Source of the DNA: Haloferax volcanii DS2
GTDB taxonomy: Archaea > Halobacteriota > Halobacteria > Halobacteriales > Haloferacaceae
Direction of reading: 5' to 3'
DNA length: 32,000 nt
Assembly: GCF_000025685.1 (NCBI RefSeq)
Contig: NC_013967.1
Span: 2,610,001 to 2,642,000, forward strand
Made by a program: the position numbers and the translations under genes. Shown in pieces: positions 15,011 through 26,099 of the stretch. A model generated the notes under the pieces. The model saw only the letters and a program-made list of their open reading frames with translations, ran no database searches and was not told the DNA's origin. Each line of letters opens with the position of its first letter. Positions within the stretch are counted from its first letter, which is position 1.

Positions 15011-15646
15011 GTGGACGCACACCAACGCCAGTTCCGGAACCCCTTCTCGATGGACACCGACTGCACGAACTGCTCGGGGCTCTGCGAGACGCGCGAGCAG
15101 GTCGTCCACGGCTACGGCGACGTGGGCGCGGAGTTCCTGTTCGTCGGCGAGGCTCCGACCGCGGCCGCGGAACGGACGGGCGTCCCTTTCACCGGCGACG
15201 AGGCCGGACGGCGCGTCCAGCGCATCCTCGGCGACCTCGGCTTCGTCCGGTCCGAACCGGACGCCGACGAGCCGGACGTACAGAACGTCTTTTTCACGTA
15301 TCTCACGCGCTGTCGACACCCCGACCGCGGGCCGAGCGACGACGAGGTTGCGACCTGCGAGCCCTACCTGAACGCGGAGGTTCGGATGATAAACCCGCAC
15401 ATCATCGTTCCCGTCGGACAGGCCGCGCTGGAGGCGCTCGCGTTCGATTACACCACGCGCGCGGCCGACAGCTTCGACGTCGACGCGGAGCACGCGACGA
15501 CCATCCGCGGCCGCGGCTTCGAACTCGTCCCGATGAAGGAGCCGGAGCGCCTGACCGACGCCGACGCCGAGGCGTTCGTCGAACACGTCCGCGAGTCCGT
15601 GTTCGGCCGGGACTACCGGCAGACGAAGGGACGGCAGAGTCGCTGA
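15011..15646 (+). CDS. udg: Uracil-DNA glycosylase, family 4-like (Fe-S type)
   Basis: CTNCSGLC, FVGEAP, VPFTGDEAGR and YLTRCRHP motifs. The listed start is GTG 15011; ATG 15050 (MDTDCTNC) is an alternative. Confidence 0.75.
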   Translation: MDAHQRQFRNPFSMDTDCTNCSGLCETREQVVHGYGDVGAEFLFVGEAPTAAAERTGVPFTGDEAGRRVQRILGDLGFVRSEPDADEPDVQNVFFTYLTRCRHPDRGPSDDEVATCEPYLNAEVRMINPHIIVPVGQAALEALAFDYTTRAADSFDVDAEHATTIRGRGFELVPMKEPERLTDADAEAFVEHVRESVFGRDYRQTKGRQSR

Positions 15647-15722: not shown

Positions 15723-16487
15723 GTGGGTATGACGGTCATCGCCGTACTCGCCGAACCGCCGCGGCCGGGACTGGTGCTTTCGGAACTCGCGGAGACGAGT
15801 CCGCTCTCGGAGGCCGAAGCCGCGGACCTCTACGCCGCGATGCTCAAAGACGTCTGTATCGCCGTCGAGCGGTCGGGCGGCGACCTCCTCGTCAACTACC
15901 GCGCCGAGGACGAGCTCCCCGACGAGTTCGCCGGGGACCACGACTCGGAAGCCGAGATTCGGAGCGTCGTCGCCGACGCCCTCGGCGGCACCGACAACGC
16001 GCGGTTCGAACCGCAGGTCGGCTCGACGTTCTCCGCCCGCGCGGGTAACACCGTCTCGCATCTGCTCAACGAGGAGGAGGAGGTCCACTCGGCGGCAGTC
16101 GTTCGACCCATCGCGCCGCTGCTCGGCCGCACGCACCTCGACAGCGCGGCGATGAAGCTCCGGAGCACGCCGGTCGTCCTCGGCCCCTCGACGGAGGGCC
16201 GCGTCTACTTCTCGGGCTTCCTCGACCCCATCGACTTCACCGACGCCTACGCGGAGCCGGAAGTCGAGACGCTCGCTCGCCGCGCCGACGACGCGGGTCA
16301 CGGCCTCGACTACGTCCCGATGCTTCCGGTCCTCGAAACGGGCGCGGACCTCGCCACGGTCGTGCCGATGCTCCGGTCGCGGGTCGAATCCGAGCGGCTC
16401 GTCCCCGAGCACACGACGACGTTCGTCTTCGAGGAGGGACTCCGGGTCGAGTCGACCGACGGCGTGTTGGAACTCGTCCGCGACTGA
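15723..16487 (+). CDS. DUF2064-like (GT-A fold) putative transferase
   Basis: The N-terminal VIAVLAEPPRPGLVLSEL...EAADLYAAMLKDV resembles the DUF2064/TIGR04282-type N-terminus. The start is ATG 15723 or 15729. Confidence 0.5.
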   Translation: MGMTVIAVLAEPPRPGLVLSELAETSPLSEAEAADLYAAMLKDVCIAVERSGGDLLVNYRAEDELPDEFAGDHDSEAEIRSVVADALGGTDNARFEPQVGSTFSARAGNTVSHLLNEEEEVHSAAVVRPIAPLLGRTHLDSAAMKLRSTPVVLGPSTEGRVYFSGFLDPIDFTDAYAEPEVETLARRADDAGHGLDYVPMLPVLETGADLATVVPMLRSRVESERLVPEHTTTFVFEEGLRVESTDGVLELVRD

Positions 16488-17550: not shown

Positions 17551-17684
17551 GACTCCAAGAACCATGGCGTGCCACGCGTATATTTCTTGTTCATCGGTAG
17601 CAAACACCGTGACCACGCGGCGTTTCGCATGACAGATATCAACAGATGCGTAACGGCTTTGAATCGGCCTGCCAACACTCGGGT

Positions 17685-18920: not shown

Positions 18921-20234
18921 ATGGTACGTGATATCGTACGCCGCGACTTCCTCAAGGGAGTGGGAGCCGCGGGCGCGGCAGGCTTGACTGGCTTATCCGG
19001 ATGCATCGGTGGCGGCGGCGGTGGCGGCGGTCCCGAGGGGCTCGTCGTCATCGGCTACCCCGAAAGTGGTATTCAACTGTTCCGTGACTACTACAGCGCG
19101 TCCGACGGGAGCGAGGAGATACTCGTGCCCGACGGAATGCGCTCCGGGTCGATGCCCGGACAGGTCGGCAACGACATGGCGAACGTGACCGGGACAGCAC
19201 CCGCCGCGGGCGGTCCGAACCAAGACACGTTCAACCAACTGTTCGAAGACGAGTACGGCGCGGCCCCGGGCGTCTTCACGTCGCAGACCTACGACTCGGT
19301 CGCGATTCAACTGCTCTCGAACGCCGCCGCCGGGGAGAACTCCGGCCCGGCCATCAAAGACCAGATGCGCCGGATGGCGAACCCCGATGGAATGACCGTC
19401 GGACCGGACAACCTCGTCGAGGGCATCGAGGCCGCCGCGAACGGTGAAGACATCGACTACCAGGGCGCGTCCTCGTCCGTCAACTTCGACGAGAACGGCG
19501 ACCCGGCGGAAGCCGCGTACTCCATCTGGGAGTTCGACGCCGAGAACAACGCCACGTCGAGCGTCGAGACGCAGTCGTTCGCCGGCGAGAACTCCGACGG
19601 GGACGGCCCGTCCGCGGACAGCGGTCCGGGAGGTTCCGACCGCGAGATGTCGGTCGGCATCCTGCTGCCCGAAACCGGCGACCTCGCTGCCGTCGGTGCG
19701 CCGATGATTCAGGCCGCACAGATTCCTGTCATGCAGGTCAACGACGCCAACCCGGCCGGGCTCTCCGTCAACGCCCAAATCGAAGACACCCAAACGTCCC
19801 CGAGCTCCGGTGTCTCCGCCGCGCAGTCGCTCGTCTCCGCGGGTGTTCCGTCCGTCTGTGGGTCCGCGTCGTCCGGCGTGAACGTCCCCGTCTCGAAGCA
19901 GGCGTTCATCCCGAACGAAATCGTCGGTTGCTCGCCGTCCTCAACGGCTCTGTCCGTCTCGAACCTCGAAGACAACGACTTCATCTTCCGAACTGCACCG
20001 TCCGACTTCCTGCAGGGCCGCGTCATGGCACAGGTCATGGCCGAGCGCCTCGAAGTCAGTTCGGTCTCGACGCTGTACGTCAACAACGACTACGGCCAGC
20101 AGCTCTCGGAGCGCTTCTCGAACGTGTTCAGCGACTCGTTCGACGGCGAAGTGTACAACCAGGTCGCGTTCAACATCGGCGAGTCGTCGTACTCCTCCGT
20201 CATCGAGACGGCGCTCTCCGGCCCGGACAACTGA
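18921..20234 (+). CDS. LivJ-type (branched-chain amino acid family) ABC substrate-binding lipoprotein, apparently circularly permuted
   Basis: Tat motif RRDFLKG, lipobox LSGC and a Gly8 tether. The segment LVVIGYPESGIQLF...YSIWEF aligns with the C-terminal half of LivJ. The segment MSVGILLPETGDLAAVGAPMIQAAQ...GESSYSSVIETALSGPDN aligns with the N-terminal half. Confidence 0.85.
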   Translation: MVRDIVRRDFLKGVGAAGAAGLTGLSGCIGGGGGGGGPEGLVVIGYPESGIQLFRDYYSASDGSEEILVPDGMRSGSMPGQVGNDMANVTGTAPAAGGPNQDTFNQLFEDEYGAAPGVFTSQTYDSVAIQLLSNAAAGENSGPAIKDQMRRMANPDGMTVGPDNLVEGIEAAANGEDIDYQGASSSVNFDENGDPAEAAYSIWEFDAENNATSSVETQSFAGENSDGDGPSADSGPGGSDREMSVGILLPETGDLAAVGAPMIQAAQIPVMQVNDANPAGLSVNAQIEDTQTSPSSGVSAAQSLVSAGVPSVCGSASSGVNVPVSKQAFIPNEIVGCSPSSTALSVSNLEDNDFIFRTAPSDFLQGRVMAQVMAERLEVSSVSTLYVNNDYGQQLSERFSNVFSDSFDGEVYNQVAFNIGESSYSSVIETALSGPDN

Positions 20235-20353: not shown

Positions 20354-21314
20354 ATGAAGCGCCGCGCCCTCCTCTCGACGGTCGCCGGTTCGGCCCTCGG
20401 GCTCGCTGCCGGCTGTCTCAGCGACTTGGACGAACCGGTTGAGACCCCCGTGAACCCACAGACGACGATGGCGACGACCGACCCGCCGACCGAGACGAAC
20501 ACGTCGGAACCGGACTCCAGCATCGGCCTCTCGGTCGTCAACGAGGACGACAAGTCGCACACGCTGTCGGTCCGTGTGACCGGCGGCGACGAGACGCGTT
20601 TCGTCGGGTCGCTCGACATCGGAGCGGGTCCCGGCCGCGGGCGGAGCGTCGAGAACGACCTCGTCGGTGAGAGAACTGTCCGCGTCGTCGCAGAACTCGA
20701 AGCGGGTGCGACGCTCGACTACGAGTGGACGGTCACCGACGAGACGCGCCATCTCGAACTCGTCGTCACGTCCGACGCGGACCTCGAACCGCGACAACGC
20801 GTGCGGCCGGCTCTCGACGCTGCCGATCTCCCGTACACCGTCACGGGTGCGAAAGACATCTTCGCACCGCCGAGCGCGACGATTCGGAATCGGAGCGACG
20901 CCGACGCTCGGCTCACCGTCGCCATCGACCACGACGGAAGCCGCGTTTTCGAACGCGCCTTCGACGCGGCGACCGACCGCGAGATTTCGACGCCGGCGCT
21001 CGTGGCGTCCCACGGGACCTACGAGGTGTCGTGGAGGCCGAAGACGGCCGCACCGCGACCCACGAGTGGGACATCTCGGAGAAGTGGGGCTGGCCGACGC
21101 TCGCGGTGCTCGTCGCGGCAGACGGCTCGCTTCGGGTCGGGTCTGGCTGGCCCAAGACGGCCTCGGTTCACGTCGAAAACGAGGGCGAGGCGGAGCGCGA
21201 CCTGACGTGACGCTGACGCTCGTTCGACCCGCTGACGCGGACGCCGCTAGTGACGACGCCGGCGGTGGAGATGGCGACCTCTCGGTCGAGTCATTCGAGT
21301 ACGTCTGCAGTTGA
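20354..21314 (+). pseudogene. Secreted lipoprotein gene (beta-rich, hypothetical) with one clear and one probable -1 frame disruption
   Basis: Signal and lipobox MKRRALLSTVAGSALGLAAGC. The acidic high-GC3 reading runs to ..SHGTYEV at about 21028 and then continues one frame back (VVEAEDGRTATHEWDISEKWGWPTLAVL...ENEGEAERDLT, stop at 21210). A further shift near 21205 would extend it (VTLTLVRPADADAASDD...SFEYVCS, stop at 21314). Confidence 0.55.
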
Positions 21315-21347: not shown

Positions 21348-22109
21348 CTAGCCGCCGAGGAAGTCCTGCCGGACCTGTTCGTCTTCGAGGAGCGCGGTAC
21401 CGGTGTCCATGTAGCGGTTCTGTCCGTTGGCTAAGACGTAACCACGGTCGCAGCGTCGGAGCGCTTCCTTCGCGTTCTGTTCGACCATCAGGACGGCCGT
21501 GCCGGCCTCGTTAATCTCGTCGATTTTGTCGAACATCTCCTCGACGAGGTCGGGCGCGAGCCCCGCCGAGGGTTCGTCGAGAAGCAGCAAGTCGGGGTCG
21601 AGCATGAGCGCGCGACCCATCGCGAGCATCTGCTGTTGCCCGCCGGACATCGTGCCCGCCTTCTGGTCTTTCCGCTCTCTGAGGATGGGGAACCGCTCGT
21701 AGACCGCCTCCATGGCGTCCTGCGGCACCTCGTCGAGGATGTACGCGCCCATCTCGAGGTTCTCTTCGACCGTCAGCGTCGGGAAGATGTTGTCGTTCTG
21801 CGGGACGTAACCGATGCCGACGTGGATGATGTCCTCGGGTCGACGCCCGGTGATGTCCCCGTCTTTGAACCGGACAGTCCCACCCATGTGGGCGGTCAGG
21901 CCGAAGACGGACTTCATCGTCGTGGACTTGCCGGCCCCGTTCGGGCCGACGATGGTGACGTACTCGCCGTCGAACACGTCCATGTCGACGTCGGTGAGAA
22001 TCTGGAGGTCGCCGTAGCCGGCGTCGAGGTCGCGGACGCGCAGGAGCACGTCGTCGCGCCCTTCGACGCCCGCGCCGCTCGTCGCGTCGGTGTTGGCGTC
22101 GACGCTCAT
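21348..22109 (-). CDS. livF: ABC transporter ATP-binding protein, LivF type
   Basis: GPNGAGKSTT Walker A, the LSGGQQQML signature, LLLDEPS Walker B, and the LivF-type YVPQNDNIFPTLTVEENL. Confidence 0.9.
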   Translation of the reverse strand: MSVDANTDATSGAGVEGRDDVLLRVRDLDAGYGDLQILTDVDMDVFDGEYVTIVGPNGAGKSTTMKSVFGLTAHMGGTVRFKDGDITGRRPEDIIHVGIGYVPQNDNIFPTLTVEENLEMGAYILDEVPQDAMEAVYERFPILRERKDQKAGTMSGGQQQMLAMGRALMLDPDLLLLDEPSAGLAPDLVEEMFDKIDEINEAGTAVLMVEQNAKEALRRCDRGYVLANGQNRYMDTGTALLEDEQVRQDFLGG

Positions 22110-22978
22110 ACGTTGCCTCCGAGGTAGGCCTCGATGACCTCTTCGTTGCTCCGAATCTCGTCCGGCGTCCCCTCCGTGAGCACCGAGCCCTGGTGGAGGA
22201 CGATGACGTGTTCACAGTTGTTCATGATGAGGTCCATGTCGTGTTCGACGAGCAGGAACGTGTAGCCCTGCTCGCGGAGTTCGTGTACGTGTTCGAGCAG
22301 TTTCTTCTCGAGCGTGGGGTTGACCCCGGCGAACGGCTCGTCCAAGAGCAGCATGTCGGGGTCGGTCAGGAGGGCCCGCGCCATCTCGAGGAGTTTGCGC
22401 TGCCCGCCGGAGAGATTGCCCGCGTACTCCTCTGCGATGTGGGCGATGTCGAAGAAGTCGAGCACCTCCCAGACGCGTTCGAGGAGTTCCGCTTCCTGTT
22501 CGCGGACGTCGTCGCGGACGCCCGGCATGACCGAGCGCCACAGCGCCTCGCCGCGCTGGTGTTTCGGCGCGAGCATCATGTTTTCGAGGACGGTCATCTC
22601 GCTCAGTTCGCGGGCGATTTGGAACGTTCGGACCATCCCGCGGTTGGCGATTTGGTGGGGTTCCTCGCCGGTGATGTCCTCGCCGTTGAACGTGACCGTG
22701 CCGGCGTCGGGCTTGAGCATGCCCGTGATGAGGTTGAACGTCGTCGACTTCCCGGCCCCGTTCGGGCCGATGAGCCCCGTGAGCGTCCCGGACTCGACCT
22801 CGAAGGTCGCGCCGTCGACGGCGGTGATGCCGCCGAAGGACTTCTCCAGTCCCTCGACCTGAAGCGGGTAGTCGACCGACGTGTCGACGCCGGAGGCGAA
22901 CGCGCCGAGCGCGGCCTCGTCGACCTTGTTCGCCACGTCTTCGACGGGCTGGTCGGCGGCGTCACTCATCGGTCTCAC
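22106..22978 (-). CDS. livG: ABC transporter ATP-binding protein, LivG type
   Basis: GPNGAGKSTTFNLITG, LSGGQRKLLEMARAL, LLLDEPFAG, and the C-terminal LivG extension. ATGA-type overlap with livF. Confidence 0.9.
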   Translation of the reverse strand: MRPMSDAADQPVEDVANKVDEAALGAFASGVDTSVDYPLQVEGLEKSFGGITAVDGATFEVESGTLTGLIGPNGAGKSTTFNLITGMLKPDAGTVTFNGEDITGEEPHQIANRGMVRTFQIARELSEMTVLENMMLAPKHQRGEALWRSVMPGVRDDVREQEAELLERVWEVLDFFDIAHIAEEYAGNLSGGQRKLLEMARALLTDPDMLLLDEPFAGVNPTLEKKLLEHVHELREQGYTFLLVEHDMDLIMNNCEHVIVLHQGSVLTEGTPDEIRSNEEVIEAYLGGNV

Positions 22979-24299
22979 CTCCTTCGGCCGCGGCGTCGAC
23001 GCCGCCGTCCGCGGCCATCGACTTCGGCCGCGACAGCGGGATGACGGACGCGGTCTCCTTGCGGTAGCCGAGCATCCCCTCCGGCCGGTTGTGCATCAGC
23101 CAGATGAGCACGAGGCCCATCACGACCAACTGGAGCTGTCGGATGCTGTCGACCGTGTACAGGAGGAACGGCACGGGGTCGAACTGCGAGATGAGCGGCG
23201 AGATGGCCTGTCCGAAGCCGGACGGCGAGTCGAAGTTGGGGAACACCGCCGACACGAGGTTCTGGAAGTACCGCGGTCCCTGGTAGAGCACCGCCGCGAA
23301 GACGGCCCCACCGAGGACGCTCCCCGTGTTCGAACCGGCCCCGCCGATGATGAGCGCGATCCAAATGAAGAACGTCACGCGCGGCCGGAAGAAGTTCGGC
23401 GTCACCGCGCCCTGTGGAACGAGCCAGAGGATGCCGGCGAGCCCCATGAGCGCACAGCCGAGCATGAACGACTTGATTTTGAACCGGTCGGTGTTCTTGC
23501 CGAGGGCGTTCGCGACGTCCTCGTCCTCGCGGATGGCCTTCAGCACGCGACCGAACGGCGATTCGCCGGTGCGCTTGAGCAGCCAGTAGAAGCCCGCGAC
23601 GAACCCGAGGAGCAACAGCCCGTAGACGAGACCGTCGACGACCGGCTTGGGGTTCCTCGGCACGAGGACTTGGAAGGCATCGACGAAGCCGAGGTATCCG
23701 TTCCAGAGGCCGACGCCACGAAGCAGCGCCTCCAGCGGCGGGGAGAAGTCGAGGATGAGACCCGACCCGCCGCCGAATCCGACGCGGTTACCGAACAGCT
23801 GGAACTGCTGGAGTTCCCCGGAGAGGAAGCTGAACCGGACGATTTCCGACATCGCGATGGTGACGATTGCGAGGTAGTCGGCCCGCAACCGAAGCGCCGG
23901 GAGCGCGACCACGAGTCCCAACAGCGCGGCCGCGGTCATGCCGGCGAGGATACCCACCCAAAGCGGCAGGCCGAGGCCGCCGACCTGCGCCGCGCCGCCG
24001 GCGACGTACGTCGGCTTCGTCACGATTGCCGTGACGTAGACGCCGACGGCCATGAAGCCGACGATGCCGATGTTGAACAGCCCGGTGTACCCCCAATGGA
24101 GGTTGAGCGCGAGCGACAGCATGGCGAAGACGCCGATGTAGAACGTCAGCGTCGCGATGGAGTTGAGTTGACCGCGGAGCGTGTATCCGAGAACGACCCC
24201 CGCGAGGACGTACGCGAGGTACGTCCCGAGGAGGACCAGTACGATGAGGCCCGCGTCGCCGCCCGGGATGCGGGCGGTGAAGTCGTCGCGGACGCTCAT
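22962..24299 (-). CDS. livM: Branched-chain amino acid ABC permease, LivM type
   Basis: The start is at MSVRDDF (cat at 24297-99), overlapping the livH stop. It is multi-TM with the LivM motif GYTGLFNIGIVGFMAVGVY. The listed 719-aa ORF is an off-frame upstream extension. Confidence 0.85.
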   Translation of the reverse strand: MSVRDDFTARIPGGDAGLIVLVLLGTYLAYVLAGVVLGYTLRGQLNSIATLTFYIGVFAMLSLALNLHWGYTGLFNIGIVGFMAVGVYVTAIVTKPTYVAGGAAQVGGLGLPLWVGILAGMTAAALLGLVVALPALRLRADYLAIVTIAMSEIVRFSFLSGELQQFQLFGNRVGFGGGSGLILDFSPPLEALLRGVGLWNGYLGFVDAFQVLVPRNPKPVVDGLVYGLLLLGFVAGFYWLLKRTGESPFGRVLKAIREDEDVANALGKNTDRFKIKSFMLGCALMGLAGILWLVPQGAVTPNFFRPRVTFFIWIALIIGGAGSNTGSVLGGAVFAAVLYQGPRYFQNLVSAVFPNFDSPSGFGQAISPLISQFDPVPFLLYTVDSIRQLQLVVMGLVLIWLMHNRPEGMLGYRKETASVIPLSRPKSMAADGGVDAAAEGGETDE

Positions 24300-25402
24300 G
24301 CGGTCGCCCTCCCGCTGAACAGCCCGGACGGTTTCACGAGGAGGATGACGATCATGACGACGAAGGCCGCGGCCCGCGAGAACGCCGAGGGAATCCACAG
24401 GACCGACATCGACGCCGTCAGTCCGATGACGAGGCCGCCGGCGATGGCCCCGTAGATGGAGCCGATGCCGCCGAGGATAACCGCGGCGAAGATGAGAAGC
24501 AACAGCAGCCACCCGTCGTTGAACCCGAGGGTCCCTTTCCAGAGGATGAACATGTAGCCCGCGACGCCGGTCAGCCCGCCGCCGATAATCCAGGTCGCGC
24601 GGACGACGCGCTCGGTCGAGATGCCGGTGATGAGCGCGAGGTCCTTGTTGTCGGCCATCGCGCGCATCGCCTTGCCGAGTTTCGTCCGCTGTAAGAGCAC
24701 GTGGACGCCGAGCATCAGCGCCGACGCGACCACGAGGAGCGTGATGTCGTGGGCGTTGATGAACACCGTGCCGTCGATGAAGTCCAGCGACAGCGAGGGC
24801 GGTTGGGCGGTCGTGCCGCGCACGTCGGAGCCGAAGACGAACTGCATCAGGTAGCGAAGCGCGAACGCGACGCCGACGCTCGTGATGAGAAGCGTGATAC
24901 CGTCCTCGTTTCGAATCGGTTTGAAAATGGTGCGGTCGACCGCGAGCGACAGCGCGATGGCGAAGCCGCCGGAGACGACGATACCGGCGACGACCGCGAG
25001 CGGCGTCGAGAGCATCCCGATGCCGAGCGTCCCGCCGTAGACCGACCCCCCGGCCCCGACGAGCAGGAGCGCGCCGATATCGGCGCGTCCCAACCCGGCG
25101 ATGAGGTACGTCGTCGCCCACCCCGAGAACGCCCCGGCCGTGATGTAGTCGCCGTGGGAGAAGTTAGCGAAGTTTAGAATGCTGTACGTCATCGACAACC
25201 CGATGCCCGCGAGGCCGATTACGAGCCCCCGCATCAGACCATCCCAGACGAGCGTGCCAATGTCGGCAAACTGCGTCTGCCCCGTTGCTAACCCGCGAAG
25301 TAAGTCACCGAGTAGTACGACTACGATGACCGCCAAGACGAGCGCGAACGGACGCTCGATGGCGAACCGCCTTCCACGGGAGTAGGTTTCGGCAATACCC
25401 AT
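24296..25402 (-). CDS. livH: Branched-chain amino acid ABC permease, LivH type
   Basis: 368-aa multi-TM protein with IGLSMTYSILNFANFSHGDY and KAMRAMADNKDLA motifs. Confidence 0.85.
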   Translation of the reverse strand: MGIAETYSRGRRFAIERPFALVLAVIVVVLLGDLLRGLATGQTQFADIGTLVWDGLMRGLVIGLAGIGLSMTYSILNFANFSHGDYITAGAFSGWATTYLIAGLGRADIGALLLVGAGGSVYGGTLGIGMLSTPLAVVAGIVVSGGFAIALSLAVDRTIFKPIRNEDGITLLITSVGVAFALRYLMQFVFGSDVRGTTAQPPSLSLDFIDGTVFINAHDITLLVVASALMLGVHVLLQRTKLGKAMRAMADNKDLALITGISTERVVRATWIIGGGLTGVAGYMFILWKGTLGFNDGWLLLLLIFAAVILGGIGSIYGAIAGGLVIGLTASMSVLWIPSAFSRAAAFVVMIVILLVKPSGLFSGRATA

Positions 25403-25562: not shown

Positions 25563-26099
25563 ATGCGCGTCAGTTCGGCGGCGTTTTCGGAGCTCGACGA
25601 CCTCGTCGAGCTGTGGGTCGAACTCGCCGCGGACCAGCGGGCGTCCGGCTCGCACCTCCGAGCCGAGGCCAACCGAACACCGATACGGGAGGCGCTGGCT
25701 CGACACGTCGCCGCCGACGGCGTCCTCGTCGCCCGCGAGGGCGATGTGAGCAATGGCGGCACGGAGGTCGGAAGCAGCGCAGAGGACGCGGACGCCGACG
25801 GCCTCGTCGGGTTCGTCATGTTCGACATCGAGGCGGGAGCGTACGAACAGGACGCGACTCGCGGAATGGTTCGGAATCTGTTCGTCCGCCCGGCGTACCG
25901 AGACGCCGGCGTCGGAACGCGGTTGCTGGCGGCGGCGGAGGACGCGCTGGCCGACGCCGGCGTCGACGCCGTCGCGTTGGACGTGCTGGCGGACAACGAG
26001 GCCGCCCGTCGATTCTACCGGCGACACGGCTACCGGCCCCACCGCGTCGAACTGGAGAAATCGATGCGAAGCGATACACACTCAAAGGAGGACGGGTAA
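25563..26099 (+). CDS. GNAT family N-acetyltransferase
   Basis: RNLFVRPAYRDAGVGTRLLAAAEDALADAG...ARRFYRRHGYR (acetyl-CoA binding motif A). Confidence 0.85.
   Translation: MRVSSAAFSELDDLVELWVELAADQRASGSHLRAEANRTPIREALARHVAADGVLVAREGDVSNGGTEVGSSAEDADADGLVGFVMFDIEAGAYEQDATRGMVRNLFVRPAYRDAGVGTRLLAAAEDALADAGVDAVALDVLADNEAARRFYRRHGYRPHRVELEKSMRSDTHSKEDG

Follow-up and report, generated by a model that had tools for sequence, protein, structure and literature searches.

Here, we analysed a 32,000-nt stretch of the Haloferax volcanii DS2 genome (contig NC_013967.1 of assembly GCF_000025685.1, positions 2,610,001 to 2,642,000 of the forward strand; hereafter, the window), in which one gene appears to encode a circularly permuted LivJ-type substrate-binding protein (SBP) of an ATP-binding cassette (ABC) transporter. 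In this protein, the equivalent of the C-terminal half of LivJ precedes that of the N-terminal half. Considering the conservation, ligand-binding residues, relatives and genomic setting described below, we regard it as very likely that the protein is a functional, lipid-anchored natural circular permutant, exported through the twin-arginine translocation (Tat) pathway, which arose by duplication.

The swapped order of the halves is apparent from profile comparisons. Both Peripla_BP_6 (PF13458; 89.1 bits, cutoff 31.7) and ANF_receptor (PF01094; 62.4 bits, cutoff 25.4) match the protein. Residues 244–431 of the native sequence correspond to positions 3–186 of the 343 in the Peripla_BP_6 model, while the N-terminal 205 residues alone match only the end of ANF_receptor (248–351 of 353). 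The same arrangement is seen with a family-specific, canonical-order hidden Markov model (HMM) built from 38 close canonical relatives, the coordinates of which are denoted h: nt 19026–19571 map to h228–408 (225 bits) and nt 19569–20222 to h18–228 (243 bits, E 2e-75). Because the two segments match h228–408 and h18–228, the fold is covered exactly once from h18 to h408, with no element missing or doubled and with the cut at h227/228. We take this cut to lie at about LivJ 191/192; the LivJ sequence used is 344 aa long, in agreement with PDB entries 1z15/2liv. A single colinear match from model start to model end was not obtained with the native sequence. It emerged only after in silico de-permutation (residues 241–437 followed by 37–240), which yielded one Peripla_BP_6 match (model 3–316, 101.6 bits) instead of the two stretches (89.1 bits) of the native protein, as well as colinearity with ANF_receptor (9–351 of 353) and with PDB entries 3td9 (residues 18–333) and 2lbp (residues 12–319). 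The swapped-order match scores are far beyond chance, and the claim of the initial annotation, made from the sequence alone, that the protein carries the LivJ halves in swapped order and should give two partial profile matches with swapped coordinates is borne out. In NCBIfam, no dedicated family was found; PRK15404 produced a half-length, sub-threshold match (54 bits versus a cutoff of 477).

Comparisons with solved structures follow the same pattern. Residues 5–194 of PDB chains of the LivJ type align to residues 242–429 of the query, and their residues 310–335 align weakly to its residues 180–205; entries 4n0q, 3ipc and 3td9 align on the segment equivalent to the N-half. A Foldseek search against PDB retrieved only LivJ/LivK/Atu2422-type proteins and mGluR relatives (probability 1.0), and the sequential alignments end at about 190–200 columns with TM scores of 0.37–0.48, which is the pattern expected for a permutant. 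The AlphaFold2 (AF2) model (pLDDT 71, pTM 0.73) displays a regular beta/alpha alternation along the whole chain. Judged by its profile scores, ligand residues and gene partners, the protein is a member of the LivJ/Peripla_BP_6 family (class I, HAAT).

The open reading frame (ORF) is in one frame throughout and, as the initial annotation had stated, its GC content at third codon positions is uniformly high (0.68–0.94 in every 150-nt block). While the longest mechanically called ORF begins at GTG 18897, orthologues favour ATG 18921 as the start. The N-terminus of the protein reads MVRDIVRRDFLKGVGAAGAAGLTGLSGC-I-GGGGGGGG-PEGLVVIGYPESG..., that is, a twin-arginine signal, the lipobox LSGC and a Gly8 tether, with the twin Arg codons at 18939–18944 (motif RRDFLKG), the lipobox at 18993–19004 and Cys28 as the predicted lipidation site. 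These elements, along with the Asp/Gly/Ser junction between the halves and the peptides quoted in the initial annotation, were all recovered at the positions given there. At the sequence level, the protein matches the haloarchaeal Tat lipoprotein pattern of a twin-arginine motif, a hydrophobic stretch and a lipobox cysteine. R7, R8, G27 and C28 are kept across the 36 orthologues of a colinear alignment (A1; mean column identity 77%), in which the tether differs by genus in length and composition (8 to about 50 residues).

The permuted order extends far beyond H. volcanii. In a scan of one genome per species, which yielded 315 relatives, it was present over residues ~1–437 in all of the best 80, several of them represented by complete chromosomes. 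The genera concerned are Haloferax (99% identity in H. prahovense), Halobellus, Halogeometricum, Halopelagius, Salinigranum, Haloquadratum, Haloplanus, Halorubrum, Halolamina, Halorussus, Halostella, Haloarchaeobius and Halorubellus. At least 120 clusters at 90% identity share the order, and the best 120 are all 424–477 aa long with 90–100% query coverage, the exception being the cluster represented by P0097 (44%; P-numbers denote cluster representatives). Public records list these proteins under generic names ('ABC transporter substrate-binding protein'). Comparing the query with six orthologues by NG86, dN/dS was 0.09–0.25 overall, 0.06–0.29 in the C-half segment, 0.09–0.19 in the N-half segment and 0.19–0.41 in the junction.

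Since the order is kept in orthologues and dN/dS is low in both halves, misassembly and dead fusion are excluded. An assembly or sequencing artefact in the window, for which nothing specific speaks, is refuted by independent assemblies with the same order, including the complete chromosomes CP048739, CP172595, CP134946, CP040678 and CP122312 along with many draft genomes and metagenomes, and we give it practically no credence. The initial annotation had itself raised the questions of misassembly and of conservation among orthologues, and both are answered in favour of a genuine permutation, conserved in at least 80 reference genomes. A fusion of the C-half of one LivJ gene with the N-half of the next, either dead or recent and accidental and devoid of binding function, would account for the order of the halves, as this order would result from a deletion spanning two tandem genes, and the adjoining lipoprotein gene does decay. 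However, the same architecture occurs in at least 80 species of several families, dN/dS is 0.06–0.29 in both halves, the ligand residues are invariant, and h18–h408 is covered exactly once with nothing missing or duplicated, so that this explanation, too, is effectively refuted and its probability is negligible. Two genomes carry additional copies: Haloquadratum walsbyi J07HQW2 has two permuted copies ~11 kb apart on one scaffold (loci L028 and L034), the first copy being separated from livF by 5.7 kb, and Halorussus litoreus has an extra canonical-order paralogue beyond livH (L066:12928–14241), apparently split into two HMM pieces.

Regarding function, the residues that we take to hold the ligand in LivJ (S79, T102, Y150, Y202, E226 and F276) correspond to S318, T342, Y391, Y46, D71 and F119 of the query, and all six are invariant in the 36 orthologues. 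Ser318, Thr342 and Tyr391 lie in the N-half segment, equivalent to about LivJ 1–191, and Tyr46, Asp71 and Phe119 in the C-half segment, equivalent to about LivJ 192–346. Because the ligand-holding positions of LivJ are present and invariant, an alpha-amino acid is the likely ligand. Pocket residues differ, LivJ Y18 being V258 and C78 being S317 in the query. In Halostella (L002:20–5431), the permuted SBP/liv locus adjoins genes for glutamate mutase subunits, methylaspartate ammonia-lyase, mesaconyl-CoA hydratase and an HpcH/HpaI-type lyase, i.e. for the methylaspartate cycle, and these neighbours are a weak hint at glutamate or related amino acids as possible substrates.

We propose that the protein would be exported by Tat and lipidated at Cys28. 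Its chain would start in the middle of lobe 2 (around what we take to be LivJ 192) and run to the old C-terminus. From there, a junction of 25 residues that originated as the old post-lipobox tether would lead it to the old N-terminus, and it would end at about LivJ 191. The lipid anchor would thereby sit on lobe 2 instead of lobe 1, and the chain would cross between the lobes four times instead of three, with the canonical fold and cleft probably kept. The ligand would be caught in the inter-lobe cleft, where the contacts to the alpha-amino and alpha-carboxylate groups would all be present, supplied in reversed sequence order. The loaded protein may then dock on LivH/LivM, operating with the LivG/LivF ATPases, as the conserved synteny suggests.

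To place the permutant among its relatives, we mapped the best 150 of 1.84 billion scored representatives onto the canonical h coordinates. Canonical order is found in 108 of these, which include close relatives of the query (50–54% identity), answering the question of the initial annotation as to whether non-permuted forms exist. Another 14 are permuted, 12 of them longer than 400 aa and most with a Tat signal and/or lipobox. Tandem units within one polypeptide occur in six (two units in P0135, P0136, P0151 and P0176; three in P0202; five in P0144), a canonical unit with an extra partial piece was assigned to two (P0131 and P0172), and 21 are fragmentary or unclassifiable, including P0266, which by blastp contains two tandem units. 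By the same method, P0131 is a permutant cut at h73/74. A C-N-C pattern is seen in P0141 and P0172. The three units of P0202 make up 1199 aa and the five of P0144 1943 aa, while P0135 (L083:6001–11181) consists of 1034 aa with two complete LivJ-type units and a C-terminal YceI-like domain. The gene next to the latter encodes 626 aa with one LivJ-type unit and a YceI-like domain, and insertion sequence (DDE_Tnp_1) genes lie to either side of the two, whose surroundings contain no liv permease genes.

The permuted forms differ in where the fold is cut. The query shares its cut (h226–229) with P0121, P0128, P0132 and P0142, as well as with the non-halophile-like P0175 and P0228. Other cuts lie at h73/74 (P0122, with three cluster members on three contigs, and P0131, on contigs of up to 121 kb), h170/175 (P0125), h251/254 (P0127) and h277/278 (P0211). 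The h73/74, h170/175 and h251/254 forms bear a Tat signal and lipobox, and P0211 has no recognisable signal. All cut points fall in alpha-to-beta loops, presumably around LivJ 37–40, 134–139, 191/192, 215–218 and 239/240, and, given the Rossmann-like topology, these loops are probably located on the face away from the cleft. In a neighbour-joining (NJ) tree (100 bootstraps) of units de-permuted explicitly from the HMM coordinates, P0125 pairs with canonical P0123 (97%), P0127 with canonical P0126 (100%) and P0211 with canonical P0183 (100%), while the query groups with P0121 (77%) and the tandem units of one protein are mostly sisters. On the basis of the tree, at least four or five independent permutation events are likely. 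P0125 (L086:4897–7299) lies behind the same DUF5785 and CBS pair as the Halostella orthologue of the query, with no downstream liv genes, and P0131 (L087) is an orphan beside an NMT1-type binding-protein gene.

The junction between the halves is informative about the route by which the permutation occurred. Canonical proteins end in ...ET[IQ]xF[ES]G, and behind their lipobox comes first a tether and then R[ET]hxhGhLhPxTGDL. In the permuted forms, it is precisely these two ends, the canonical C-terminus and the start of the canonical tether, that are joined. The junction of the query aligns to h18–32, the canonical N-terminal mature segment, in accordance with the earlier suggestion that the linker between the halves is an old post-lipobox tether. 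Its columns F220, G227, G229, A232, D233, S234, P236, G237, G238 and R241 are conserved in A1, and the motif in the query reads GP-x-AD-x-x-PGG-x-x-R-E. In the query clade, the motif takes the form GP-x-A-[DE]-x-x-PG-[GS]-x-x-(G)R-[TE], and it recurs in the h73/74-cut forms P0122 and P0131. Because the motif is common to both groups, the sequences suggest a single fusion that was later resolved by different cuts. The junctions of P0125, P0127, P0175, P0228 and P0211 are unrelated to it. Although low-confidence in the structure model, this inter-half 'linker' (19578–19646, residues 220–242) shows much stronger conservation than does the tether at the N-terminus.

These observations are consistent with a scenario in which two copies were fused head to tail, the second signal peptide was lost, and the N-terminal part of copy 1 and the C-terminal part of copy 2 disappeared, both being cut at the corresponding position of an alpha-to-beta surface loop. 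Fusion and trimming would have taken place at an ancestral locus that was already convergent, and similar events may have occurred independently several times in the family. The existence of tandem forms, of other cut points and of a C-N-C locus strongly supports repeated permutation by duplication. The C-N-C locus (L084:6001–7870, on the 56.7-kb contig Ga0466774_0000141 of JGI 3300042668) contains the P0127 frame, composed of a signal, a first C-half (C1, h253–411), a junction, an N-half (N2, h27–261) and a stop. Directly after the stop, in the +1 frame, follows a complete second C-half (C2, h252–411, 208 bits), which Pfam places on the C-terminal portion of each of the two models, and then a convergent livFGMH cluster. 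C1 and C2 are 84% identical at the protein level while their synonymous sites are saturated (pS 0.77, pN 0.10), which argues that both were long kept by selection. We therefore dismissed the idea that this duplication is young. As judged from these sequences, the C-N-C state was stable, functional and long-lived, in line with the partly truncated intermediates that the duplication model predicts (PMC3320104). The break between N2 and C2 is either recent or an assembly error. A resemblance of the P0127 C-terminus to the first 25 mature residues of the query was also considered as a relic of a second copy and rejected, since it reflects the cut at h251/254; the true second copy at this locus lies downstream, in the other frame. 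A six-frame scan of the whole window revealed neither a second-copy relic nor a paralogue, and among 90 loci scanned for relics one was found only in L084, with none in loci of the query-type order. With tandem and C-N-C forms extant, the course put forward in the initial annotation, namely tandem duplication and fusion followed by losses, agrees well with the family record.

An alternative origin by fission and fusion, in which the gene was split into half-genes that were then re-fused in the opposite order, was also considered: isolated halves of a class I protein, the ribose-binding protein (RBP), can be produced and can reassemble in vitro (PMC10601554), and half-length matches such as P0146 and P0168 occur among the representatives. 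However, these matches look like fragments, as would arise at contig ends, and no stand-alone half-genes were found at the loci examined. In contrast, two-, three- and five-unit tandem proteins and a C-N-C locus are seen directly, the junction consists of the complete old C-terminus followed by the tether, as expected of a head-to-tail fusion of whole copies, and fission/fusion does not predict one junction motif common to several cut points. We thus consider this origin very unlikely and favour duplication.

In the window, the SBP gene lies tail-to-tail with a livHMGF cluster on the opposite strand (Table 1), which has no binding-protein gene of its own. The conserved start of livM (MSVRDDF..., 445 aa, at ~24299) overlaps the livH stop by 4 nt, and the mechanical livM ORF reaches upstream to 25121 (719 aa). 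Among the 82 orthologous loci over which synteny was counted, SBP(+) and livFGMH(-) are arranged tail-to-tail in about 72, with gaps of 6 bp to about 2 kb. The canonical-order P0123, from a Halorientalis metagenome-assembled genome (MFB6143336.1), occupies the same slot (UDG, DUF2064, DUF5785, ..., CBS, SBP(+), livFGMH(-), GNAT), and the window follows this order (UDG at 15011, DUF2064 at 15723, DUF5785 at 17646, SBP, livFGMH, GNAT at 25563). Because canonical P0123 has the same slot and layout, the convergent arrangement is older than the permutation and no symptom of decay. The initial annotation, which described the gene as convergent to and detached from its transporter partners, was hence right about the position; what it called detachment is ancestral and a sign neither of decay nor of the permutation.

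The possibility that the permuted LivJ homologue no longer serves the adjacent transporter, acting instead as a sensor or receptor or with another ABC system, has to be weighed against this setting. Some binding proteins are known to feed signalling proteins (PMC8050422), the SBP gene on the strand opposite to livHMGF cannot be co-transcribed with it, about 10 of the 82 loci have no liv genes within 7 kb, and the variants P0125 and P0131 are orphans. On the other hand, no further binding-protein gene belongs to the livHMGF cluster, the two partners have stayed tail-to-tail across families with gaps down to 6–15 bp, and the canonical orthologue shares the layout. Overall, loss of the link to the transporter seems unlikely, and a role in transport with LivHMGF is preferred.

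Between the SBP gene and livF lies the lipoprotein gene (20355–21314, + strand; MKRRALLSTVAGSALGLAAGC...) that the initial annotation had described as decaying. Frame shifts near 21028 and near 21207 and a deletion of about 220 bp relative to H. prahovense, with 18 gap positions, are in keeping with that description. The gene is intact in H. prahovense (397 aa) and three other Haloferax species (392–401 aa), and its Halogeometricum homologue has a Pfam Ig_halo domain. The H. volcanii copy is either a pseudogene or contains a run of sequencing errors.

Table 1. Coordinates of the probable permuted SBP gene, its parts and the adjacent transporter genes within the window
Feature	Position	Strand	Basis
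Circularly permuted LivJ-type substrate-binding lipoprotein gene (probable)	18921..20234	+	437 codons and stop, uninterrupted; orthologues 70–99% identical, full length
Tat signal peptide ending in lipobox L-S-G-C (predicted)	18921..19004	+	Pfam TAT_signal E 7.7e-4, TIGR01409
Gly8 tether, lipid anchor to fold	19008..19031 (residues 30–37)	+	A1 columns 33–88
LivJ C-half equivalent	19026..19571	+	h228–408, 225 bits, E 4.7e-70; ANF_receptor model 248–351
Junction, end of old C-terminus and old post-lipobox tether	19569..19646 (residues 217–242, ...TQSFAGENSDGDGPSADSGPGGSDRE)	+	Aligns to h18–32
LivJ N-half equivalent	19647..20222	+	Peripla_BP_6 model 3–186; Pfam 73.9 bits alone; family HMM 243 bits
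livF-type ATPase	21348..22109	-	ABC_tran 1e-31; synteny
livG-type ATPase	22106..22978	-	ABC_tran and BCA_ABC_TP_C; synteny
livM-type permease	22962..24299	-	tblastn synteny, 57–97% identity across loci; BPD_transp_2 in orthologous loci
livH-type permease	24296..25402	-	BPD_transp_2 4.5e-34; synteny

Several observations weigh against the interpretation of a functional permutant that arose by duplication. The ligand assignment depends on residue equivalence to LivJ, whose Tyr18 is Val258 in the query. The confidence of the AF2 model is only moderate, with low pLDDT at 74–84, 223–229 and 341–352. The deeper nodes of the NJ tree are weak (1–56%), making the number of independent events uncertain. 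Among the best 150 representatives, tandem N-C-N-C forms were not found inside the haloarchaeal clade; those that exist are distant (31–38% identical to the query) and of non-halophile composition. The frameshift in L084 could be a metagenome assembly error, and the loci without nearby liv genes have been mentioned above.

A more speculative view, which we put forward tentatively and hold to be possible but rather doubtful, is that the transporter locus is a hotspot of repeated permutation. One orthologous position would be occupied, depending on the haloarchaeal lineage, by the canonical form or by one cut at h73/74, h170/175, h227/228 or h251/254, and the mid-lobe-2 loop at h226–229 would have been chosen independently by unrelated lineages, non-halophiles among them. 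C-N-C or N-C-N-C intermediates would have been long-lived and functional. Low-complexity Gly/Asp/Ser repeats coding for the tether may drive in-frame fusions and deletions, and the move of the anchor from lobe 1 to lobe 2, together with the conserved new junction between the lobes, may alter hinge dynamics or docking and could be adaptive rather than neutral.

Natural permutants with extant intermediates are rare and constitute the main evidence on how proteins re-thread a fold. This family offers canonical, tandem (two-, three- and five-unit), half-trimmed and at least five permuted forms. Several of these occupy a locus that can be recognised as orthologous, and the family includes the genetically tractable Haloferax, which renders the permutation-by-duplication model directly testable. 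How re-threading affects a Venus-flytrap binding protein in its hinge motion, its tethering to the membrane and its docking likewise becomes testable, which is of relevance to biosensor engineering, a field that makes permutants of this kind by hand. Of the current profiles, those of Pfam catch half of the protein and that of NCBIfam remains far below threshold, and a dedicated model would improve annotation. Full-text literature searches yielded engineered permutants and biosensors only; neither a natural permutant of a class I binding protein nor any reference to the haloarchaeal protein was among the results. Within the literature searched, we treat the natural LivJ-type permutant as undescribed.

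The closest known systems are the class I (cluster B) amino-acid-binding proteins of HAAT importers, namely E. coli LivJ/LivK (PDB 1Z15, 2LIV, 2LBP and 1USG), Atu2422 (3IPC), the Brucella protein 4N0Q and Thermotoga LivK (3TD9). With these, the query shares Peripla_BP_6 and ANF_receptor matches, 20–27% identity, the same set of ligand-contact residues and LivH/M/G/F-type partners. Unlike them, it is permuted at what we take to be LivJ 191/192, predicted to be Tat-exported and lipid-anchored rather than free in the periplasm, and encoded convergently to the transporter genes instead of being co-transcribed with them; its anchor would sit on lobe 2 and a fourth connection would link the lobes. 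The canonical haloarchaeal orthologues (such as P0123 and P0126) are closer, with 50–54% identity, a Tat signal, lipobox and tether, the syntenic slot and convergent livFGMH. In contrast to the query, their N-half precedes the C-half, and their N-terminal tether is its internal junction.

Textbook cases of permutation by duplication are the DNA methyltransferases and saposin/swaposin (reviewed in PMC3320104), which resemble the present family in tandem fusion, loss of redundant ends, and extant tandem and partly truncated intermediates. The query differs from them in fold and function and in having retained a secretion signal and lipid anchor at its new N-terminus, and its family differs in that several cut points coexist at apparently one orthologous locus. 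Finally, engineered permutants and halves of the RBP (PMC9815098, PMC10601554), along with biosensor scaffolds made from permuted binding proteins, demonstrate that class I proteins tolerate new termini and the joining of old ones. Whereas those are laboratory constructs, the H. volcanii protein is natural, conserved and under purifying selection.

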